This document shows, in pieces, positions 18,295 through 43,775 of a DNA stretch of 64,000 nucleotides; position 1 is the stretch's first letter; each line of letters opens with the position of its first letter. Source of the stretch: a virus; the IMG/VR virus record IMGVR_UViG_3300045988_166613, positions 1 through 64,000 of that record; one strand, given 5' to 3'. The position numbers and the translations under genes were made by a program. Below the pieces are notes generated by a model, which was not told the DNA's origin, did no database searches, and saw only the letters and a list, made by a program, of their open reading frames with translations.

Positions 18295-21200
18295 TTAATA
18301 ACTATTAAGCTGTTCATTAATCTCATTAATAATTCTTCTATCTCTTTCATCTAGCATAGATTTGATATCCTCTGTTGTACCATTATTTACTGAACCAACA
18401 TTTAAATGTGTGTTGATGTTGATATTAGCTTTTTTACTACCTTGAGGTATTGCCATAAAAGAAGCAACCTTTGGAATAGCTTGTACAACATTATTACCAC
18501 TGTTATATCTAATATTAGAACTTGAAACGCCTAGATTATTATTAATAGATGTTAATTCACCATATAGTTTCTTAGTTAACTCAAGGTTATCTATGTATTC
18601 TTGCATTTTAAGACTACTATCTGCAAATACTTCTCCATTCTTCTTATAATAATCATTTAAAGCATCTCTAAGTTTTATAACGTGACCTTCTATTTCAATA
18701 AATCCTTTTTGAATCATACCTTTTGCTAATTCTGCTATTTTTTCATCAGTATAAGTTTTTTCCATTTCTTTAATTTTCTCATCCTTATGTTTATCTAATT
18801 TGTCCATTTGTTCATCAAAAGCTTTATTACCTTGATCTTTTTGTCTATCTCTAATGAAGTTATTTAATTCTTTTTCAAGGTCATCTTTTTGCTTTAACAA
18901 ATCTTTAAGTTTAGATTGTCCTTCAGATGAAATATCTCTTCTAACAGAATCTATTTGAGCATTAAGTTTATTTAACTTATCTTGCTTTTCTTTAAGGTTT
19001 TTCTCAAAGTTTTCATCGTCATATTTCTTGTTGTACTCATCTCTTTGTTTCTTTAATTCTTCTTTTATTTTAGAAGTTTCATCTTCTAAAGCTTTTTTAC
19101 GTTCTTCTACTTGATTTTTAACAACATTAGTCATTTCTCTTTCGGTATCACCCATTAACTTAACTTGTTTTTCAGAAACTTCTTTAATAGTTTTGGTTAG
19201 TGCATACCATTCATTATTAAGTTTAGGTAATTCTTTAGAAGTTATTTCAAAGTATTTATCAGCTTTTTCTTTTAAATCTTTGAAATTCTTAATTGCTTGT
19301 TCTTTAGCTTTATTGGAATTATCCATAGCGTTAACTTCATCTTCTATTTGTTTCAATCTATCATAGTAGTTAAATATATTACCATTAGAAGCATTAAAGC
19401 CATTGCTTTTTAAGACACCTTCTAAATATCTACCTTCATTTTGTTTAGCAGCTATTAAATTATTTATGGCATCTTTCTTTTGTTTATAAAGATTTATTTC
19501 TTTATTCATATATTGAAGCTTATTAACACCTTGAGCATTTTCTTCAAGAGTTTTGGTAATTTCTAATTCATTGTTAACATCATCTATAGCATCTGTAAGA
19601 GATTTGTAAGCATCGATTTTGTCTTCGATATCTTTGATATCTACATGTTCGCCATTTTTAGAACCTTTACCTCCATGTCCTTTACTACCACTGCCTTTGT
19701 GTCCATTAGCTTCTGGTGAATAGTCAACCTGTACTGGATTATTTGAAGGCAATATTGGATCAATACTATGTTCACTCCAAGCAGTCCATTGTACTCCATT
19801 CCATTTCCATTCTGCTCCTGGTGCTAATGGAACGTGTGGTTTTTGAGGTTTAAGACTATTAGGTAAACCATTTTCATCATAGCCTAATCCAACTGAAGCC
19901 ATAACTTCCTGAAGTTTTTTAGCAAGTTCATAGGCTGATAAAGCCTTAGTTTTACATGCGTTATCAAAATTCTTAACATCGGTTTTGTATGCTCCAGCCA
20001 TATTACCGACCATTTGACTATTAGCTCCTTGTATGGCGTTGGCACCATCTACTGCTGCTTTACTTTTGCTTGTAACTAAATTGGTGTGATTAGTATTATC
20101 AGTTTTGTAGTGTTCGGCTTTGTTGTTTGTTTCTTGTGAAGAAGCTTCGGTTCTAGCGGTTGCTCCATTTTGACCATTAGCTACCTTTGTGTTTTCACTA
20201 TCTGCATGAGCGTTAGTATCATTGGCATAGTTATTCATTTTAGCTTGTGTTTCTTGATTTGATAAACCAACACTATGATTCATAGCTTGTGTTTCAATTG
20301 CTTCTTTACTTGATAAATCACTTATCCCTTGTTGTAATAGATTTTGTGAATTTTGTATTGCTTGTCTATATGTAGCATCACTTTCAGTTCTTAATGTTTT
20401 TTCTAAAGCAATACTATTCTCCATGAATTTATTTTTATCAGCCAAAAGTGATATAACTCTAGTATCCCCAGAATTTAACATAGAACCTACTGTTTTTGCT
20501 GATAACGTTCCCGTTTTTTGGAATTCTGACATGGCTGATTGTACTAAGCCAATATTTCCAGTAAGTTTATTGAATTTTGAACCTAATTTATCTAATTCAT
20601 CTGCTGCTGATGTCGCACTTTCTTTAATTGCATCAAGTGGGTTAGTTAATCCTTCTAATGATGGTTTAGTGTTATCAGCGGTAGTTTGAGTTTGTTGAAG
20701 TGAATTATCAAATTCTCTAATTTTTTCAAAAACATCAACTCCACCAAACTGTGCTTTAATTTCAATATCTGACATTTTAGAAGCTTTCATATCAGCTACA
20801 GCTTGTTTAATACTTGTTATCGTTGCTAATTGTTCTTGAAGTTCTTTATTAACTTCTTGTGTATCAGCTTTTTTAATAGCGCTATTATGCCCAGTGCCCA
20901 TTAAAAGTAGTTTTTGAAACTTACTTAAACCAGTAGAATTAGACGAAGACATTTTTTGATAATTATTCTTATTTTCAAAATATTTATCAAAAACATCCAT
21001 GTGTTTACTGTTTTCTTGTGCTATTTTTTTAGCTGACTCTTCTCTTTCCTCTTTCTTTAATCTTATACTTTCTTCAATAAGAGCATTATTATTAGCAATC
21101 GCATTATTTTGAGAATCTAATCCATTTTTAGTTTGAGGCAATAGAGTTACCATCTCTGATTGAAGTTTATTTAATTCGGATTGCAATTCTATTTTTTCTT

Positions 21201-22272
21201 GTTCATTTTTTGTATTTGCTAACTGATTTTGTAATTCTTTTATTTTTGAGTATTTTTCTTCTGCTTTACTAATTGTTTCATTAGCTTGTTTTGAAGAATT
21301 AAAAAAGTCTGCATTTAATTGTTTTAACTCTTCTCTTGTTGTGTGAAGTTTATCGATAAAAGTCACTAATTTTTCAATTGCAAATGAAACAACCAGTCCA
21401 ACTCCAAACGAAATAGCTGCTTGAGCTGCTGTAGCTGCAACCCTTAATAATCCAAGTTCTACTTTTGTTGCAATTATACTCCCCTTTACTTTCCCCAAAT
21501 TAACTCCATAGGAAAGAGTAGCCTTATTTAGTCCTAACTGCGCATTTTTTGTTAATTTTATTTCTTTGATTAATTCTCTTTGTTCTTTTATCTTATTGTT
21601 TAATCCATATTGTTTACTAATAAATAATTCTTCAATTTTCCCAATGCCAAATAAATTTTTATCTATAGCCATTTTTCTAAATTGCGTATTTAAGGTTGTC
21701 ATACTGGCACTAGCCAATGATACAACGCTTGGAATCGCGCCAAATTCTTTAATTAATCCTCTTAAAGCACTAACTCCGCTATCTATCCCACTTATTATGC
21801 CTTTTAAAAAATCAGTATCAGATAAATCTAAAAATAACCCTTTTATATCTTCTTTTAAACTATTAATTTTAGCTGATAAAGAATTCATATAAGCTTCTTG
21901 TTCTTGTGCAGCACTTCCGAAGCTATTATCTGCTGTTTTTTTTATATTTTCTAAATCCTTTTTTGCATTTAACATCAAAGAGAAGAAAACGTTTGCATTT
22001 TGCTTCCCAGCAAATTTTTCGGCAATCATGGATTTTTGCATATTATTAAGATCATCCCAAACCATAGATAAATCTTTAATAACATCATATGTACTTCTAA
22101 ATTCTTCTTTACCCTCTTTAGTGACTTGGGTTAATTTAACACTTCCATGAGTTGTTTCATCTAACATTTTCTTTAATTTAGGAAATGTTTCTCCGCCTTT
22201 TTCTTTCATACCTCTCATGTTCATTGAGATTGTTTTTAATGCATTACCAACTTTAGCAGGCAGTATATTATC
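18295..22272 (-). CDS. tail tape measure protein, exon 2
   Basis: The frame stays open upstream of the annotated Met back to the intron 3' G (DNILPAKVGNALKTISMNMRG...). Long coiled-coil protein. Confidence 0.7.
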   Translation of the reverse strand, partial: DNILPAKVGNALKTISMNMRGMKEKGGETFPKLKKMLDETTHGSVKLTQVTKEGKEEFRSTYDVIKDLSMVWDDLNNMQKSMIAEKFAGKQNANVFFSLMLNAKKDLENIKKTADNSFGSAAQEQEAYMNSLSAKINSLKEDIKGLFLDLSDTDFLKGIISGIDSGVSALRGLIKEFGAIPSVVSLASASMTTLNTQFRKMAIDKNLFGIGKIEELFISKQYGLNNKIKEQRELIKEIKLTKNAQLGLNKATLSYGVNLGKVKGSIIATKVELGLLRVAATAAQAAISFGVGLVVSFAIEKLVTFIDKLHTTREELKQLNADFFNSSKQANETISKAEEKYSKIKELQNQLANTKNEQEKIELQSELNKLQSEMVTLLPQTKNGLDSQNNAIANNNALIEESIRLKKEEREESAKKIAQENSKHMDVFDKYFENKNNYQKMSSSNSTGLSKFQKLLLMGTGHNSAIKKADTQEVNKELQEQLATITSIKQAVADMKASKMSDIEIKAQFGGVDVFEKIREFDNSLQQTQTTADNTKPSLEGLTNPLDAIKESATSAADELDKLGSKFNKLTGNIGLVQSAMSEFQKTGTLSAKTVGSMLNSGDTRVISLLADKNKFMENSIALEKTLRTESDATYRQAIQNSQNLLQQGISDLSSKEAIETQAMNHSVGLSNQETQAKMNNYANDTNAHADSENTKVANGQNGATARTEASSQETNNKAEHYKTDNTNHTNLVTSKSKAAVDGANAIQGANSQMVGNMAGAYKTDVKNFDNACKTKALSAYELAKKLQEVMASVGLGYDENGLPNSLKPQKPHVPLAPGAEWKWNGVQWTAWSEHSIDPILPSNNPVQVDYSPEANGHKGSGSKGHGGKGSKNGEHVDIKDIEDKIDAYKSLTDAIDDVNNELEITKTLEENAQGVNKLQYMNKEINLYKQKKDAINNLIAAKQNEGRYLEGVLKSNGFNASNGNIFNYYDRLKQIEDEVNAMDNSNKAKEQAIKNFKDLKEKADKYFEITSKELPKLNNEWYALTKTIKEVSEKQVKLMGDTEREMTNVVKNQVEERKKALEDETSKIKEELKKQRDEYNKKYDDENFEKNLKEKQDKLNKLNAQIDSVRRDISSEGQSKLKDLLKQKDDLEKELNNFIRDRQKDQGNKAFDEQMDKLDKHKDEKIKEMEKTYTDEKIAELAKGMIQKGFIEIEGHVIKLRDALNDYYKKNGEVFADSSLKMQEYIDNLELTKKLYGELTSINNNLGVSSSNIRYNSGNNVVQAIPKVASFMAIPQGSKKANININTHLNVGSVNNGTTEDIKSMLDERDRRIINEINEQLNSY

Positions 22273-22628
22273 CTAAAGGCTTTTTATCCTCTAGTTCTAG
22301 GAGTTTCCTCCATTACATCATGTTGATTCATGATTAGCTTAGCATATATTTTCACCCTCGTTTAACGTTAGGCTAATTTAAACAATTAGGATATATCTTT
22401 AATATATCGTGGAGAACACTCTTGGAAAGATTATATTCTGTTATATTACATAACAGTTTCACCTTCTATGCGTTACAGTACAGTAGAATTTTACTTCTAT
22501 TGATTATGTCTCCATAATCTAGTTTTAAAACCTGTTACCTCGGTATTATCATATCTTTGTAGACTTAGATTTCACCGATTTTGCTCTCTTATAATATTAA
22601 GTATTTTCTACTTAACACGACCTTATTT
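22273..22628 (-). mobile_element. ORF-less group I-type intron in the tape measure gene (junctions within about 4 nt)
   Basis: Stops in all frames and GC-richer than the flanks. Ends in G. Shares a 52-nt block (one mismatch) and three further blocks with the TerL intron. Confidence 0.6.
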
Positions 22629-24272
22629 ATATTGATCTTGTATAGCTGAGTTGGCTGTTGTGATTAAAGCAATACTTTGACTTAAATCATTATTGGCTGT
22701 TGAGAGGGCGGATCCCCCTCGCATGATGGCAGAATTTAATCCGCCTACAGAAACGCTAAAATGATTACTGACGTTATTTAATTTATCAATAATATCCATA
22801 CTATCTTTAGCTTGGATATTGTATGCTTTCATTGTTGCAATTAAACCTTTGTTCGCACTCTCAGAATCAATATCACCGACATTAGAAAAAATTATAGAGT
22901 TTTGAGCTAGTTCTTTTGATTCTTGATAGCTATATGACATCTGTGCGAATGCAGCAGTTGCTTCAATTACATTTTTAGTTTGATTTCCCAATGCTTTTGC
23001 CATATCATTTGCTTGATTTTCAAAAGCCTCATATTCTTGAGAGACTTCATTTGTAACTTTTTTCAAGTCTCTCATTGAGTTATCAACTTCTACGATTGTA
23101 CTAAAACCTTCTTTTAAAACTCCAATGGAAGCTCCGATAATTGATCCTCCAATGAAATAATCCTTCATACGTGCAAATATATTACTAAATTGACTTGTTG
23201 TTACAAGTTCACGACTTTGTACTTTTAAATCATTAACATTTTTTTGTATTCTATTTCTCTCTACAGAGCCTAATATTTCATTCTGAGCTATTAACTGTTT
23301 ATATAGATTAATTTGTCTTTCGAGTTCATTGCTAATTCTTACTTGTTCACTACTTTTACCACCACGATTATCAACTCTCACCTTTAAATTCTCCAGTGTT
23401 CTTAATTGTGATGTTAAGAATCTAGCACTTCTATTAATTTCTGCACTTCTACTAGATTCTTTCTTTATACAAGCGTCTAACTTAACTAATTCTTGAGACA
23501 GTAAATTCTTTTCCTCTTGAGTTAACCTATTACTCTTAGCTTTAGCTTCATTAATTTTATTTTGAATGTTTTGTACAGATTCTAAATGTCCTGTATTATT
23601 ATAATTACTATTTTTAAGATGTTGAGTTTCACTTAATGCTTTTATTTTATTAAGTCTATTCTCTAATTGAATTAAAAATTGTTCTTGGCTTAAATTAGCC
23701 GACTCTAACTTTGATTTATTATTAACTATCTTTTTATCTACTAAATCAAATACACGAACTAACTCGCCTTCAACCTCTTTTACAGTCCATCCATATTTTT
23801 CTACAGCTTGTCTACCTTCATCATATTGATAAGTTAAAGTAGTGTTCTTAACATTACCTTTCTTATCCATTACAGTAGATAACTTTGCCATCTTACCATT
23901 TAATAATTGTATCTCATTTTCAAGACTTTTACTTTTCTTTAGTATATCTTCAAAGTCTCCAGAAACGCTTTTTAAATCACTCTTAACTTCAAGATTTATC
24001 TTTTCACCTTTGAGTGCTGAGTTAATTTGTTTTTGAATATCTTGTAAAGCTCCATTATTACCTAAACTAATTTTACTTATGTTTAAATCAATATTTTTGC
24101 TAAGTTGATTTATTTGTTTTTGTATTTGATTTGTAGCTTTATCAATATCTTTTAAAGATACTTTTTCTAATTCAACCCCTAAATTTTTACTTAAACTTTT
24201 AATATCTTTTTCAAGTTGTTGTAATACTTTATCTTTATTTAATTTCCCACCGAATGATAGATTTAAAGACAT
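22629..24272 (-). CDS. tail tape measure protein, exon 1
   Basis: About 548 codons of coiled coil ending ...NSAIQDQY(K). GGAAAGGAGG RBS. Confidence 0.7.
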
Positions 24273-40247: not shown

Positions 40248-41768
40248 CTACTTTTTATTATTATCATCTCTAACTCTAGTTGTTTCTCCAGCATCTGTTA
40301 AATCTCCAGTATCTTTCCTTGGTCTCCCCTTATCTTCATTACCATTTTGAGTATGTGAAGAATTAAGAGGTTTCCATGTTTCATGAGTTTTAAGTATCTC
40401 ATTTTCTAAGAAATTTAATCCCATTATAGTTGCTGGTTGTAAACCTAAAGAAGCTGTATATAAAGTTTTACATGGTGCTGACATTTGAGAACCTTGTAAA
40501 TATCTATCTTGAACTTCTTTTTCATTAAAAGTAGTTATATCTAATAATTGTATGTATATCTTACCGCCATATAATTTATTAAATTTTCTATTTAACCATG
40601 TTTCAAATTGTCTATATAAAGAAAAACATTTACCTAAGTTATATTTTGTAGAGTATTCTAATGCACTTCCTGTAGCATCTACCCCAAATAATGCGGGTGC
40701 AAAAGCACTTGAACTAAATAATAATTTCTCAGCTTTTAAAATTTCATCTTCTTTAGCGACTCCCTGTGTTTGGAATTTTACTTCTTCCGCATCCATCGGA
40801 GTTGTTACTGCTGCAACACTATCTGGTAATTGTTCATTTAATAATTCCATATATGTTTGAATCATATTTAAAGATAAAAGAAAATCATCTGGTTTCTCAC
40901 CTTTCTTATTTAAAGGTATCTTAAATACGAGCATTTTTAATAAATCTGCTTTAACCTTATCTTTATTTAATCCTTTATAATCTTTTAAGTTATATAAATC
41001 ATCAAACAAACTTACATATGGAGGTAAACAATAATCCAATTCATCATTAAACCATTTTACACATATACTTTTATAAGGATCTAATTCTTGCCATTGATAA
41101 TCTGCATTATATCCGCTATTTTTATATATTACATATTTATTAGTAAATTCTTTTGGATAAGATGTTTTTAATAAATCTTCTCTACCCATAAAATAACTAA
41201 AATCAAATGCAAAATTTAAACAACTATCAAACGAAGTTATCTTGCAATATTTAGGATTTAAAGCTTTGATAAAATAATTCTTTGTACTTTCTACTTCATA
41301 TCCGTAAAAAATATCATATTTACTCATTTGTAAAGTTGCTTTTAAAAATTCTTCTTCTATATTCATTTTTAATAGTTTATTACTTGCTTTTATGTATGCT
41401 TTTTTAACATCATCAACCTTAAATTCTTTACCATCTTTATTAGGTATTGGTATTATTACTGACCTAAATAAACACATTCTAGGTATAGCTTCTACTAAAT
41501 TTTGATATTGAGGGCTTGTACCCATTAAATTTTGAGATATATCTCTTAATTCTTGTTGATAACTTTTTGGATTGTTAATCATTTGATTTATTTGTTGAGG
41601 TGTATATTCTCCAGCAAGATTTAAATTATACATCACTTCATTTTGTATCGTTTGTCCAAAAGGATATAATTTTCTAGTAAAATTTAATATTTCCCTAGCT
41701 TTATCTTCCGTAGATTTATTATCAAAAGCATCTTTTTTATAATCTTTTTTCTTACCTATTTTTCTCAC
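40248..41768 (-). CDS. portal protein
   Basis: 506 aa, directly downstream of TerL (GTGA overlap). Size and position are typical. The start codon is uncertain. Confidence 0.65.
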   Translation of the reverse strand: MRKIGKKKDYKKDAFDNKSTEDKAREILNFTRKLYPFGQTIQNEVMYNLNLAGEYTPQQINQMINNPKSYQQELRDISQNLMGTSPQYQNLVEAIPRMCLFRSVIIPIPNKDGKEFKVDDVKKAYIKASNKLLKMNIEEEFLKATLQMSKYDIFYGYEVESTKNYFIKALNPKYCKITSFDSCLNFAFDFSYFMGREDLLKTSYPKEFTNKYVIYKNSGYNADYQWQELDPYKSICVKWFNDELDYCLPPYVSLFDDLYNLKDYKGLNKDKVKADLLKMLVFKIPLNKKGEKPDDFLLSLNMIQTYMELLNEQLPDSVAAVTTPMDAEEVKFQTQGVAKEDEILKAEKLLFSSSAFAPALFGVDATGSALEYSTKYNLGKCFSLYRQFETWLNRKFNKLYGGKIYIQLLDITTFNEKEVQDRYLQGSQMSAPCKTLYTASLGLQPATIMGLNFLENEILKTHETWKPLNSSHTQNGNEDKGRPRKDTGDLTDAGETTRVRDDNNKK

Positions 41769-42952
41769 CTCCCAAACTTTTGTGTTTTAAAGAAGAATAA
41801 ATCTTCCGCTTTTATCTCTGACTCTTCTTGTTTTGGTTTATCTTCGTATGTTTTTATATAATATAATAAATATGCTACCGCTGAATATCTATCTTTATCC
41901 ATTGTCTTAGTGTTTCTTTCTACGGTTAATTTTCCCCCATTCAATGTTTTTAATGAAAGATTCGCAACTTCTTCTATGAAAAAGTCTGTTTGTATAGAAG
42001 GTAAAAAGCTATTCATCATGTAATCTTGATTACTTAAATCAACTTTTGCTTGGTCTACCTTATCTAATAATTGCAACTTACCACTTTCAACCATATTCAT
42101 AAAATTAACTATAACATCAGTATTAATACCCTGAGCATTTACCCCAAATACACATTTTCTTGCATCTGCCTCATCGCTTTCGTGATCTGTATTTATAGTA
42201 TCGTAAGCTTCTAATTCTTCACCTGTAATTGGATCTATATGAACTTTCATTAATTCATCTAATAAGCCTATACCTAAACCATTAATATCTATAGCAATCA
42301 TAATCGCATTAAACGCTTTTCTTAATCTCTTAACAGCAATAGCTTGTCCGGTAAAGTTCATTCCATTTGGAAGGTTAATCATATTAACTAACTTAACATT
42401 TCTAACCCTTTCATTTTTATCTCTTTTTACTTTTCCTATAACTATAGAAGTTTGGTTATTGCTTGTTTTAGCTGAACGAGCTACATCGACAGCCATATAA
42501 TACTCTGATTTTCCATCACCTTTTAATTCTGCTTTTGGTAAAACTCTTAGTTCCAATAGTTTATTTACATCTACTATACAGTTTTCATTTGAACCTACCC
42601 ATCTACTTTCATAGTTGGTTGCAAAGAAAATAGGTGATAATCTTTCTTTTTTTGCTAATATTTGAGTTTTTGTCTCGCCTCTACCATATTCACAAGCTAA
42701 TTGCCAATCTGAACCTATAACAATTTTCCCTTTTAAGTCTGCCATATCATCTAGCATTCTTAAACTTCTTTCATATTCAGTATTTTTAAAATATGCTGTT
42801 GTCAAGAAATGCATTTGACCATTCATTTCTTCAGGATTAATTAAAGAACTACCTATAGTTCTTCTTGGTATATTAGGGATTGGTTCAAGTGCATCTTGGA
42901 ATAGTTCATCATTAAGTAGAGCTGCTTCTTCAATATTTACAATTTTGTTACC
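41765..42952 (-). CDS. terL: terminase large subunit, exon 2 (Walker B + nuclease domain)
   Basis: Begins GNKIVNIEEAALLNDE (Walker B-like hhhhEE), in frame right after the intron-terminal G. Confidence 0.7.
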   Translation of the reverse strand, partial: GNKIVNIEEAALLNDELFQDALEPIPNIPRRTIGSSLINPEEMNGQMHFLTTAYFKNTEYERSLRMLDDMADLKGKIVIGSDWQLACEYGRGETKTQILAKKERLSPIFFATNYESRWVGSNENCIVDVNKLLELRVLPKAELKGDGKSEYYMAVDVARSAKTSNNQTSIVIGKVKRDKNERVRNVKLVNMINLPNGMNFTGQAIAVKRLRKAFNAIMIAIDINGLGIGLLDELMKVHIDPITGEELEAYDTINTDHESDEADARKCVFGVNAQGINTDVIVNFMNMVESGKLQLLDKVDQAKVDLSNQDYMMNSFLPSIQTDFFIEEVANLSLKTLNGGKLTVERNTKTMDKDRYSAVAYLLYYIKTYEDKPKQEESEIKAEDLFFFKTQKFGR

Positions 42953-43202
42953 CATAAGGCTTTTTATCCTTATGTTCTTATAGTTTCCTATAAGTTCAGC
43001 GTACATTTTCATCTTCAACATTACTTGTTAAGATGGTGAACACTCTTGGAAGGATTATATTTATTCACCTTCTACGCGTTACGGTGGATTATAGCCTTTC
43101 GCAATCTATAATCTTACCTCGGTATTATCATATCTTTGCAGACTTAGATTTCACCGATTTTGCTCACTTATTATTCAATATATTTCTACATTGAACGGCT
43201 AA
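42953..43202 (-). mobile_element. ORF-less group I-type intron in the terminase large subunit gene (junctions within about 4 nt)
   Basis: Splits the TerL ATPase between Walker A and Walker B. GC-richer than the flanks. Ends in G. Paralogous to the TMP intron. Confidence 0.6.
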
Positions 43203-43775
43203 AATTAACCTATGTCTTCTTAATCCTTTACTTGATTGAGCATTTGCTAAATTGGTTATTACAGCTCCACTGGCAAAAGTAATCTCTACGGTATCTTTGG
43301 AGATATTAGCCTGCACTATTTCATTTTTTAATAAAGGGTAAAACTTTAATATTTCTCTATGTTTTTCATTAAATAATTTTGCACTAGCTTCACGAGTTTG
43401 TGCGGACATTGATAAGGTTATATCTGGGAATAACACTGCCGTTATGTACATTGCTAATAATTCAACGAAAGTTTTCCCATATCCTCTAGGAAATGTTCCA
43501 TATATAGATACAAATCTTATCATACATCTTAAAAACACTCTTTGATCTAAATCTAATCTAATTCCTCCTTCTTCTGGAGTTATTAAATCTAAAAAAAGGT
43601 CTGGAAACCATTTAGCCCAAACCATAAAATCACACCATTTATCAAGATTTTTTTCAAAAGTTCCTTGCTGCTTATTACTTTTTGCCGATACATTACTTTG
43701 AAAATTAGGGTTATATATATCCGTTCTGCTTTTAGAGTGCATATCATTTTGTCTAAAATTTTCTATTCCACTCAT
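43203..43775 (-). CDS. terL: terminase large subunit, exon 1 (Walker A)
   Basis: FPRGYGKTF Walker A, and ...AQSSKGLRRHRLI at the junction. The stop at 43164-43166 lies inside the conserved intron block. Confidence 0.7.

Follow-up and report, generated by a model that had tools for sequence, protein, structure and literature searches.

A probable IA-type group I intron without an ORF in the TerL gene of an SPbeta-like Clostridium perfringens phage

Introduction

Phage introns of the IA2 subgroup, such as those in T4 td, nrdB and sunY, Twort orf142 and the SPO1 DNA polymerase gene, share a compact core in which P7.1, with or without P7.2, lies between P7 and P3'. They also share GNRA tetraloops on peripheral helices and insertion beside the catalytic motifs of conserved enzymes. 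Genes for the large terminase subunit (TerL) are documented hosts of phage group I introns. Such introns are reported in 5 of 52 Bastillevirinae TerL genes, IA-like models are noted to dominate, and splicing of the SIOphi TerL intron has been demonstrated both in vitro and in vivo (PMC11878797). Introns in the TerL gene of Twort are the subject of earlier reports cited in PMC6409932.

Here we describe an insert in the TerL gene of a viral genome fragment, IMG/VR record IMGVR_UViG_3300045988_166613, of which positions 1 to 64,000 were analysed (64,000 nt, hereafter the window). Like the Bastillevirinae and Twort-like TerL introns, which are mostly IA-like, it interrupts TerL in a phage of Gram-positive bacteria. 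Most of the former carry HNH or GIY-YIG genes and their mean length is 802 nt (PMC11878797), whereas the present element is ORF-less and 268 nt long; it also differs in belonging to the SPbeta YonF-like TerL lineage, in its Clostridium host and in its insertion site. Compared with the T4, Twort and SPO1 IA2 introns, P7.2 is deleted, and we assign the intron to subgroup IA as a whole.

A related TerL intron, in Clostridium phage vB_CpeS-1181 (MW478292.1), comes from a phage with the same host species, is 80% identical across the P6-P8 core and is likewise located at Walker B. It differs in residing in another TerL family, at a site inside Walker B itself (CIIAD^DYQ, where ^ marks the insertion point here and below), and in carrying a 259-aa ORF in the P5 loop. 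In its record the vB_CpeS-1181 gene (L019, 839-3793) appears as a "hypothetical protein" flanked by two CDS labelled "terminase large subunit", but it is actually one split gene.

Results

The insert divides a large terminase gene

Two open reading frames on the − strand, separated by a non-coding insert, had been noted in a preliminary description of the window, and both the ORF list and the sequence agree with that reading. The upstream frame (43164..43775) encodes 203 aa, including the Walker A motif FPRGYGKTF, and 13 of its residues are intron-encoded. The in-frame part of the downstream frame (41765..43021) holds NIEEAALL and the nuclease domain, with GNKIVNIEEAALL followed by a long C-terminal domain. 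According to the ORF list, the coding strand between the conserved coding parts contains no credible ORF and the intron no homing endonuclease gene.

The identity of the host gene was drawn from PHROGs, labelled phage homologues and a fold search because a Pfam search of both halves gave no match and a PDB sequence search nothing significant. PHROGs returned weak terminase-family matches, and the adjoining gene downstream is a portal gene (phrog_2739, E 1.6e-100). When the joined protein was used as a tblastn query, 113 phage records matched at 80% coverage or more, many of them labelled terminase or SPbeta YonF-like. The AlphaFold model, built from a 42-sequence alignment in which E193 and E194 are invariant, is mediocre (mean pLDDT 67.5, with residues 179-277 poor), and its Foldseek matches are all terminases: T4 gp17 (E 2.4e-11), the G20c TerL nuclease (target TM 0.77), HK97 and Sf6. 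The nuclease domain identified by the fold match is carried by exon 2. Judged from the modelled fold, the host gene is a large terminase with a P-loop ATPase and an RNase H-like nuclease fold, beside a portal gene. Genes neighbouring TerL in related contigs of ~142-156 kb contain YonG_N and YonD_N domains, and the element is therefore regarded as an SPbeta-like phage of C. perfringens.

Several observations on the family and its surroundings were made along the way. JGI members of the YonF-like TerL family are often named "ribonucleoside-diphosphate reductase alpha chain", probably an annotation error. In related contigs a gene about 2.5 kb upstream of TerL encodes a member of the Acb2/Tad1-hairpin family (PF24729), a family of anti-defence nucleotide sponges (L004 419-793, with counterparts in L006 and L007), and gene content upstream of YonG differs among otherwise near-identical phages. 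The TerL of Psychrobacillus phage Perkons (L010, 1038 aa) and the homologues P0052, P0054 and P0078 are interrupted within the GKT of Walker A, at residue ~102, by large insertions that stay in frame; in the latter three the insertions carry intein and LAGLIDADG Pfam domains (PF14890, PF14528), a different selfish element in a different catalytic motif. Three further homologues of ~485 aa (P0070, P0071 and P0092) start M-YGKTF inside Walker A, and could lie downstream of another intervening element or be fragments.

Uninterrupted homologues fix the junctions

A protein search retrieved uninterrupted TerL homologues of 580 aa that are 99% identical, one of which (P0002) is from C. perfringens, and these read GLRRHRL^NIEEAALL across the insert site. 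All 15 aligned homologues have the form GLRRHR(L/I/M)^(N/M)(I/V/M)EE without six extra residues (I, GNKIV) of the joined frames. At the DNA level, the intron-less allele L001 aligns to window positions 43850-43210 and then 42939-41700. Only one junction satisfies the reading frame together with an exon-final U and an intron-final G, and the intron is therefore placed at 43207..42940 (Table 1). A 5' junction after U43207 or A43206 was rejected, since that would leave U or A, instead of G, as the last intron base.

Exon 1 thus ends AGA AGA CAT AGG T, its final T being the first base of the Leu190 codon (T^TA), so that the insertion is in phase 1 and three codons upstream of E193 and E194. The spliced coding sequence would be 1743 nt long, and its 580-aa product is collinear with P0001 and P0002, with no gaps. 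The predicted ligated-exon junction reads CATAGGT^TAAATATTGAA, and the predicted junction-spanning peptide is HRL-NIEEAALLNDELFQDALEPIPNIPR.

These results revise the earlier boundaries. The insert had been placed at 43202..42953 (250 nt), which misses the 5' end by 5 nt and the 3' end by 13 nt, and the joined protein, given as 586 aa, is six residues too long. G42953 had been taken for the end of the insert; it is a G and in frame, as stated, but it is the last base of P9.1, the true terminus being G42940. An intron ending at G42953 was rejected on the grounds that it adds GNKIV, missing from all 15 aligned homologues. The suggested remedy, alignment of the joined protein with uninterrupted TerL homologues, did settle the junction (RRHRL^NIEE). 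Two separate proteins with these boundaries in homologous phages would have spoken against an intron; in the closest homologues TerL is one protein of 580 aa. The insert had also been called GC-richer than its surroundings, which holds marginally (intron 32.5%, exons 31%, window 26.6%).

Table 1. Features of the split TerL gene, its predicted intron and the paralogous element, in window coordinates
Feature	Coordinates	Strand	Basis and remarks
TerL exon 1	43208..43775	−	ATG 43775; Walker A GYGKT; junction fixed by homologue alignment and intron-less allele DNA
Predicted group I intron, ORF-less, 268 nt	42940..43207	−	RF00028 match, canonical helices, covariation, MFE, absent from relatives
TerL exon 2	41765..42939	−	Starts TA AAT ATT GAA GAA = (L)NIEE, Walker B-like; stop 41765-41767
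P1	43197..43210	−	Exon GGU (43210-43208) and intron UA (43207-43206) with guide UAGCC (43201-43197)
P2 hairpin, 9 bp	43174..43195	−	GAAA tetraloop; 7/9 pairs compensatory, 100% paired
P3 5' strand GUGAGCA	43161..43167	−	Pairs with 43036-43042; 4/7 compensatory, 100% paired
P4-P5-P5a domain	43119..43157	−	L5a = GCAA tetraloop; covariation and MFE
P6-P6a	43083..43118	−	Canonical pairs, covariation
P7 5' strand GCGUA	43073..43077	−	Pairs with UACGC 42999-43003; pseudoknot with P3
P7.1 hairpin, between P7 and P3'	43049..43072	−	GAAGG/CCUUC 100% paired, 4/5 compensatory
P8	43010..43035	−	Canonical pairs, covariation, MFE
P9, 7 bp	42977..42994	−	GAAA tetraloop; Rfam match ends here; MFE
P9.1 hairpin	42953..42974	−	4/7 pairs compensatory, 100% paired
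P10 (possible), 4 bp	42936..42939	−	Exon-2 UAAA with intron UUUA (43203-43200), directly 5' of P1 guide; read from sequence, too short for covariation
Insertion-site codons, intron carriers			AGG T^TA AAT ATT GAA GAA; common in this genome except AGG (8.6%)
Insertion-site codons, closest intron-less alleles (L001, L024, L025)	gene position ~565-585 (compare window 43210-42925)		AG(A/G) CTA AAC ATC GAG GAG; five-codon rare run (CTA AAC ATC GAG GAG), 7-17% usage each
Paralogous intron in putative tape-measure gene	22261..22634, tentative	−	blastn 91% over 78 nt; nhmmer profile E 1.8e-55

Similarity searches point to the group I family

In a 601-nt search, Rfam family RF00028 matched positions 42977-43217 (−) over the full length of the model (positions 1-253) at 42.7 bits and E 1.5e-9, a score below the curated gathering threshold of 50; no other Rfam family matched the insert. 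Scans of the whole window, at gathering thresholds and at E ≤ 0.01, reported a tRNA alone, the TerL intron having been lost to filters. The tRNA gene (49729-49795, −; RF00005, 53.6 bits) is the sole match above gathering in the window.

A blastn search against phage genomes found 70 records that match the insert and none that match the exons, from unrelated phages that include those of Staphylococcus, Bacillus and Clostridium/Clostridioides as well as crAss-like phages. These matches often adjoin annotated intron endonucleases or sit within split genes, and several stop exactly at the last intron base, 42940. An exact-motif scan of viral contigs with AAATCGGTGAAATCTAAG returned 3 loci. Among the matched phages, Clostridioides phage pCD1602_4 (L017, an unannotated record) has two related ORF-less introns at ~643-939 and ~1172-1449, about 230 nt apart. 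In the crAss-like phage cr131_1 (L011) the intron-core match at 2501-2625 begins at the stop of the annotated "terminase large subunit", with an 840-nt gap before the portal gene, and this TerL annotation may be truncated by an unrecognised intron.

Covariation supports a complete group I core

The secondary structure was written by hand after alignment of seven sequences, namely the TerL intron, the second copy in the window and five relatives. Its helices follow the order P1-P2-P3-P4-P5-P5a-P6-P6a-P7-P7.1-P3'-P8-P7'-P9-P9.1, with 13 helices and all 78 of 78 pairs canonical in the TerL intron. Across the seven aligned introns, from one of which the structure was derived, 93.9% of cells are paired, compared with 36-43% after a shift of the partners by 1-3 columns. 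Changes on both sides of a pair (compensatory) occur in 39 of the 78 pairs, P3, P7 and P7.1 included, against 7-12 in the shifted controls, and none of 500 shuffles reached any observed covariation measure. P3, P4, P6, P7 and P8 are 98-100% paired in the seven sequences, with compensatory pairs in P3 (4/7), P6 (3/4), P7 (1/5) and also P8. P7, the expected guanosine-binding helix, is 100% paired and shows a compensatory G-C to A-U change in five of the seven sequences. Unconstrained MFE folding recovered most helices (z-score -5.8).

P1 is short, with three of its 5 bp formed with the exon. A U43208•G43199 wobble marks the 5' splice site, and the U•G pair is present in all four alignment members with an adjacent P1 5' strand. 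An exon pairing proposed earlier, between GAAT about 26 nt into the insert and an exon-terminal ATTT, gives way to this arrangement: GAAT is the 3' strand of P2, and the guide is UAGCC at 43201-43197. The earlier view that the stop of the upstream frame (43164-43166) is intronic is confirmed, as this UGA (43166-43164), which terminates the exon-1 ORF, lies in the 5' strand of P3, in sequence 91% identical to the second element (~22535-22611).

The position of P7.1 between P7 and P3', a hallmark of the IA subgroup, assigns the intron to the IA type. The relatives pCD1602_4, ES-S-0173-01 and PJN02 possess P7.2 in addition. Downstream of P9.1, a conserved tail, GGUAACAAAAUUG, ends at G42940. The terminal motif AACAAAAUUG is kept in cr6_1, pCD1602_4 and ES-S-0173-01, and takes the form AACAAAACUG in PJN02; similarity ceases right after it.

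A paralogous intron lies in the same window

The second element is located between ORFs 22623..24272 and 18295..22224, and splits a very long putative tape-measure gene. Its tentative junction reads CAA GAT^C...CUG^CCT GCT AAA (IQD^PAKVGNALKT), for an intron of ~374 nt. The two introns belong to one family; both are ORF-less, their P3-P5a regions are 91% identical, and compensatory changes separate them in P2, P3 and P7. The second differs from the TerL intron in its length, with expansions in P6, P7.2, P8 and P9, and in its guide sequence and host gene. Rfam failed to detect it even at E 0.01. A structural gene is a less usual host than the DNA-metabolism genes stressed in PMC11878797.

Carriers and intron-less alleles

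At least 13 contigs, among them three NCBI assemblies, were found to have the intron-bearing allele (L004-L009 are among the carriers). C. perfringens strains with this element include those of GCA_053446885.1 and GCA_029464055.1. The intron is absent from L001-L003, L024 and L025, whose exons are 96.6% identical, and from the more distant L026-L029, which constitutes a presence/absence polymorphism at an identical site. Five carriers were compared with the window along the whole gene. Their exons show 0-11 differences from it, every one synonymous, and these are distributed across exon 1 and exon 2. The sole change within their introns is C114U in L007, which turns G102-C114 of P6a into a G•U pair and so keeps the pairing. 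Carriers and the intron-less allele are separated by 59 nucleotide differences and a single amino-acid difference. Taken together, synonymous-only exon variation, a pair-preserving change and wide occurrence suggest that the intron is tolerated and hence spliced.

The 59 differences are unevenly placed around the insertion site. Six fall within 16 nt of the junction (-1, 0, +5, +8, +11 and +14), the next nearest being at -46 and +227 (scan-corrected P ~0.004), and yield two insertion-site variants, AGGTTAAATATTGAAGAA and AGACTAAACATCGAGGAG. P1 requires the upstream G and U. The changes on the downstream side are located past P10 and therefore point either to a tract of co-conversion or to a target site selected for resistance.

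Discussion

The insert is very probably a splicing-competent, self-splicing group I intron of IA type, ORF-less and bounded by 43207 and 42940. This reading relies on the full-length RF00028 match, the homology to phage introns, the covariation and the homologue sequence that its removal restores. The central claim of the preliminary description, that an ORF-less intron splits TerL between Walker A and Walker B, is thereby upheld, the TerL fold adding to the same lines of evidence.

Splicing is deduced from sequence, the Rfam score falls below gathering and a homing endonuclease gene is lacking, as it is in degenerate derivatives; the insert could accordingly be a decayed remnant that no longer splices, within a TerL pseudogene of a defective prophage or phage-plasmid. 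We consider this very improbable. Every core helix is intact, the one polymorphism in the intron preserves its pair, exon variation among carriers is 100% synonymous on both sides of the insert, the intron-less allele differs by 59 nt and yet by 1 aa, and the allele is widespread (at least 13 contigs). A still slimmer chance is left to the expression of TerL as two polypeptides, a 203-aa N-terminal and a 396- or 418-aa C-terminal part, assembling into a split ATPase, as might be read from public annotations that call two ORFs and from an AAGGA 11 nt upstream of ATG 42955. Such a division would part Walker A from Walker B inside one ATPase fold. Moreover, the AAGGA and the ATG belong to the P9.1 hairpin, which is kept in all members of the intron family whatever the host gene, the extra residues (ILAVQCRNILNNK; MGNKIV) are missing from all aligned homologues, and the insert is a mobile RNA element met in unrelated genes.

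Least credible, with practically no weight in our assessment, is another kind of intervening element, be it a group II intron, an intein, a translational bypass or a MITE; nothing specific favours any of them. An intein was rejected since the insert does not keep the frame and contains stops, and the inteins of TerL homologues sit at Walker A. A length of 268 nt without group II domains argues against a group II intron, and against the whole class stand a group I core supported by covariation and the lack of matches to other Rfam families.

For the group I intron, a conventional splicing pathway can be proposed from its anatomy. The guide UAGCC would pair with the GGU at the end of exon 1 to form P1, presenting the U•G wobble at the cleavage site, and exogenous guanosine held in P7 would attack 3' of U43208. 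Exon 2 may then dock on the guide through its first four bases, as P10, while the terminal G42940 enters the G site, and exon ligation would produce AGG T^TA AAT and the 580-aa TerL. Because the intron has no endonuclease gene, its spread would require recombination between co-infecting relatives or an endonuclease acting in trans.

Some relatives of the TerL intron do bear ORFs (cr6_1, PJN02 and vB_CpeS-1181), and a trans-acting endonuclease could come from such elements, for example the vB_CpeS-1181 intron. A speculative reading of the rare-codon recoding at the insertion site, to which we give rather low odds, is that it is the footprint of an ongoing conflict, in which target-site immunity would oppose a trans-acting homing endonuclease that still mobilises the ORF-less intron. 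Alternatively, the recoding may be a plain co-conversion tract.

In summary, the TerL group I intron is real but ordinary, a well-known kind of phage feature in a gene for which introns are already documented, and it raises no new question. What is new is that a YonF-like TerL harbours a compact IA-type intron without an ORF, one that public records leave unannotated and that scores below the Rfam threshold. It matters chiefly for annotation. In all public contigs with the intron, an essential packaging gene is split into two ORF calls (203 aa plus 396 or 418 aa); the corrected junction yields the true 580-aa TerL. The curated Rfam threshold misses this intron, and its paralogue in the same genome escapes even permissive settings. 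To the TerL introns already known, it contributes a lineage of SPbeta-like Clostridium phages as well as a compact variant lacking an ORF; together with the Walker A inteins of homologues, the TerL intron shows once again selfish elements aiming at the catalytic motifs of the packaging ATPase.
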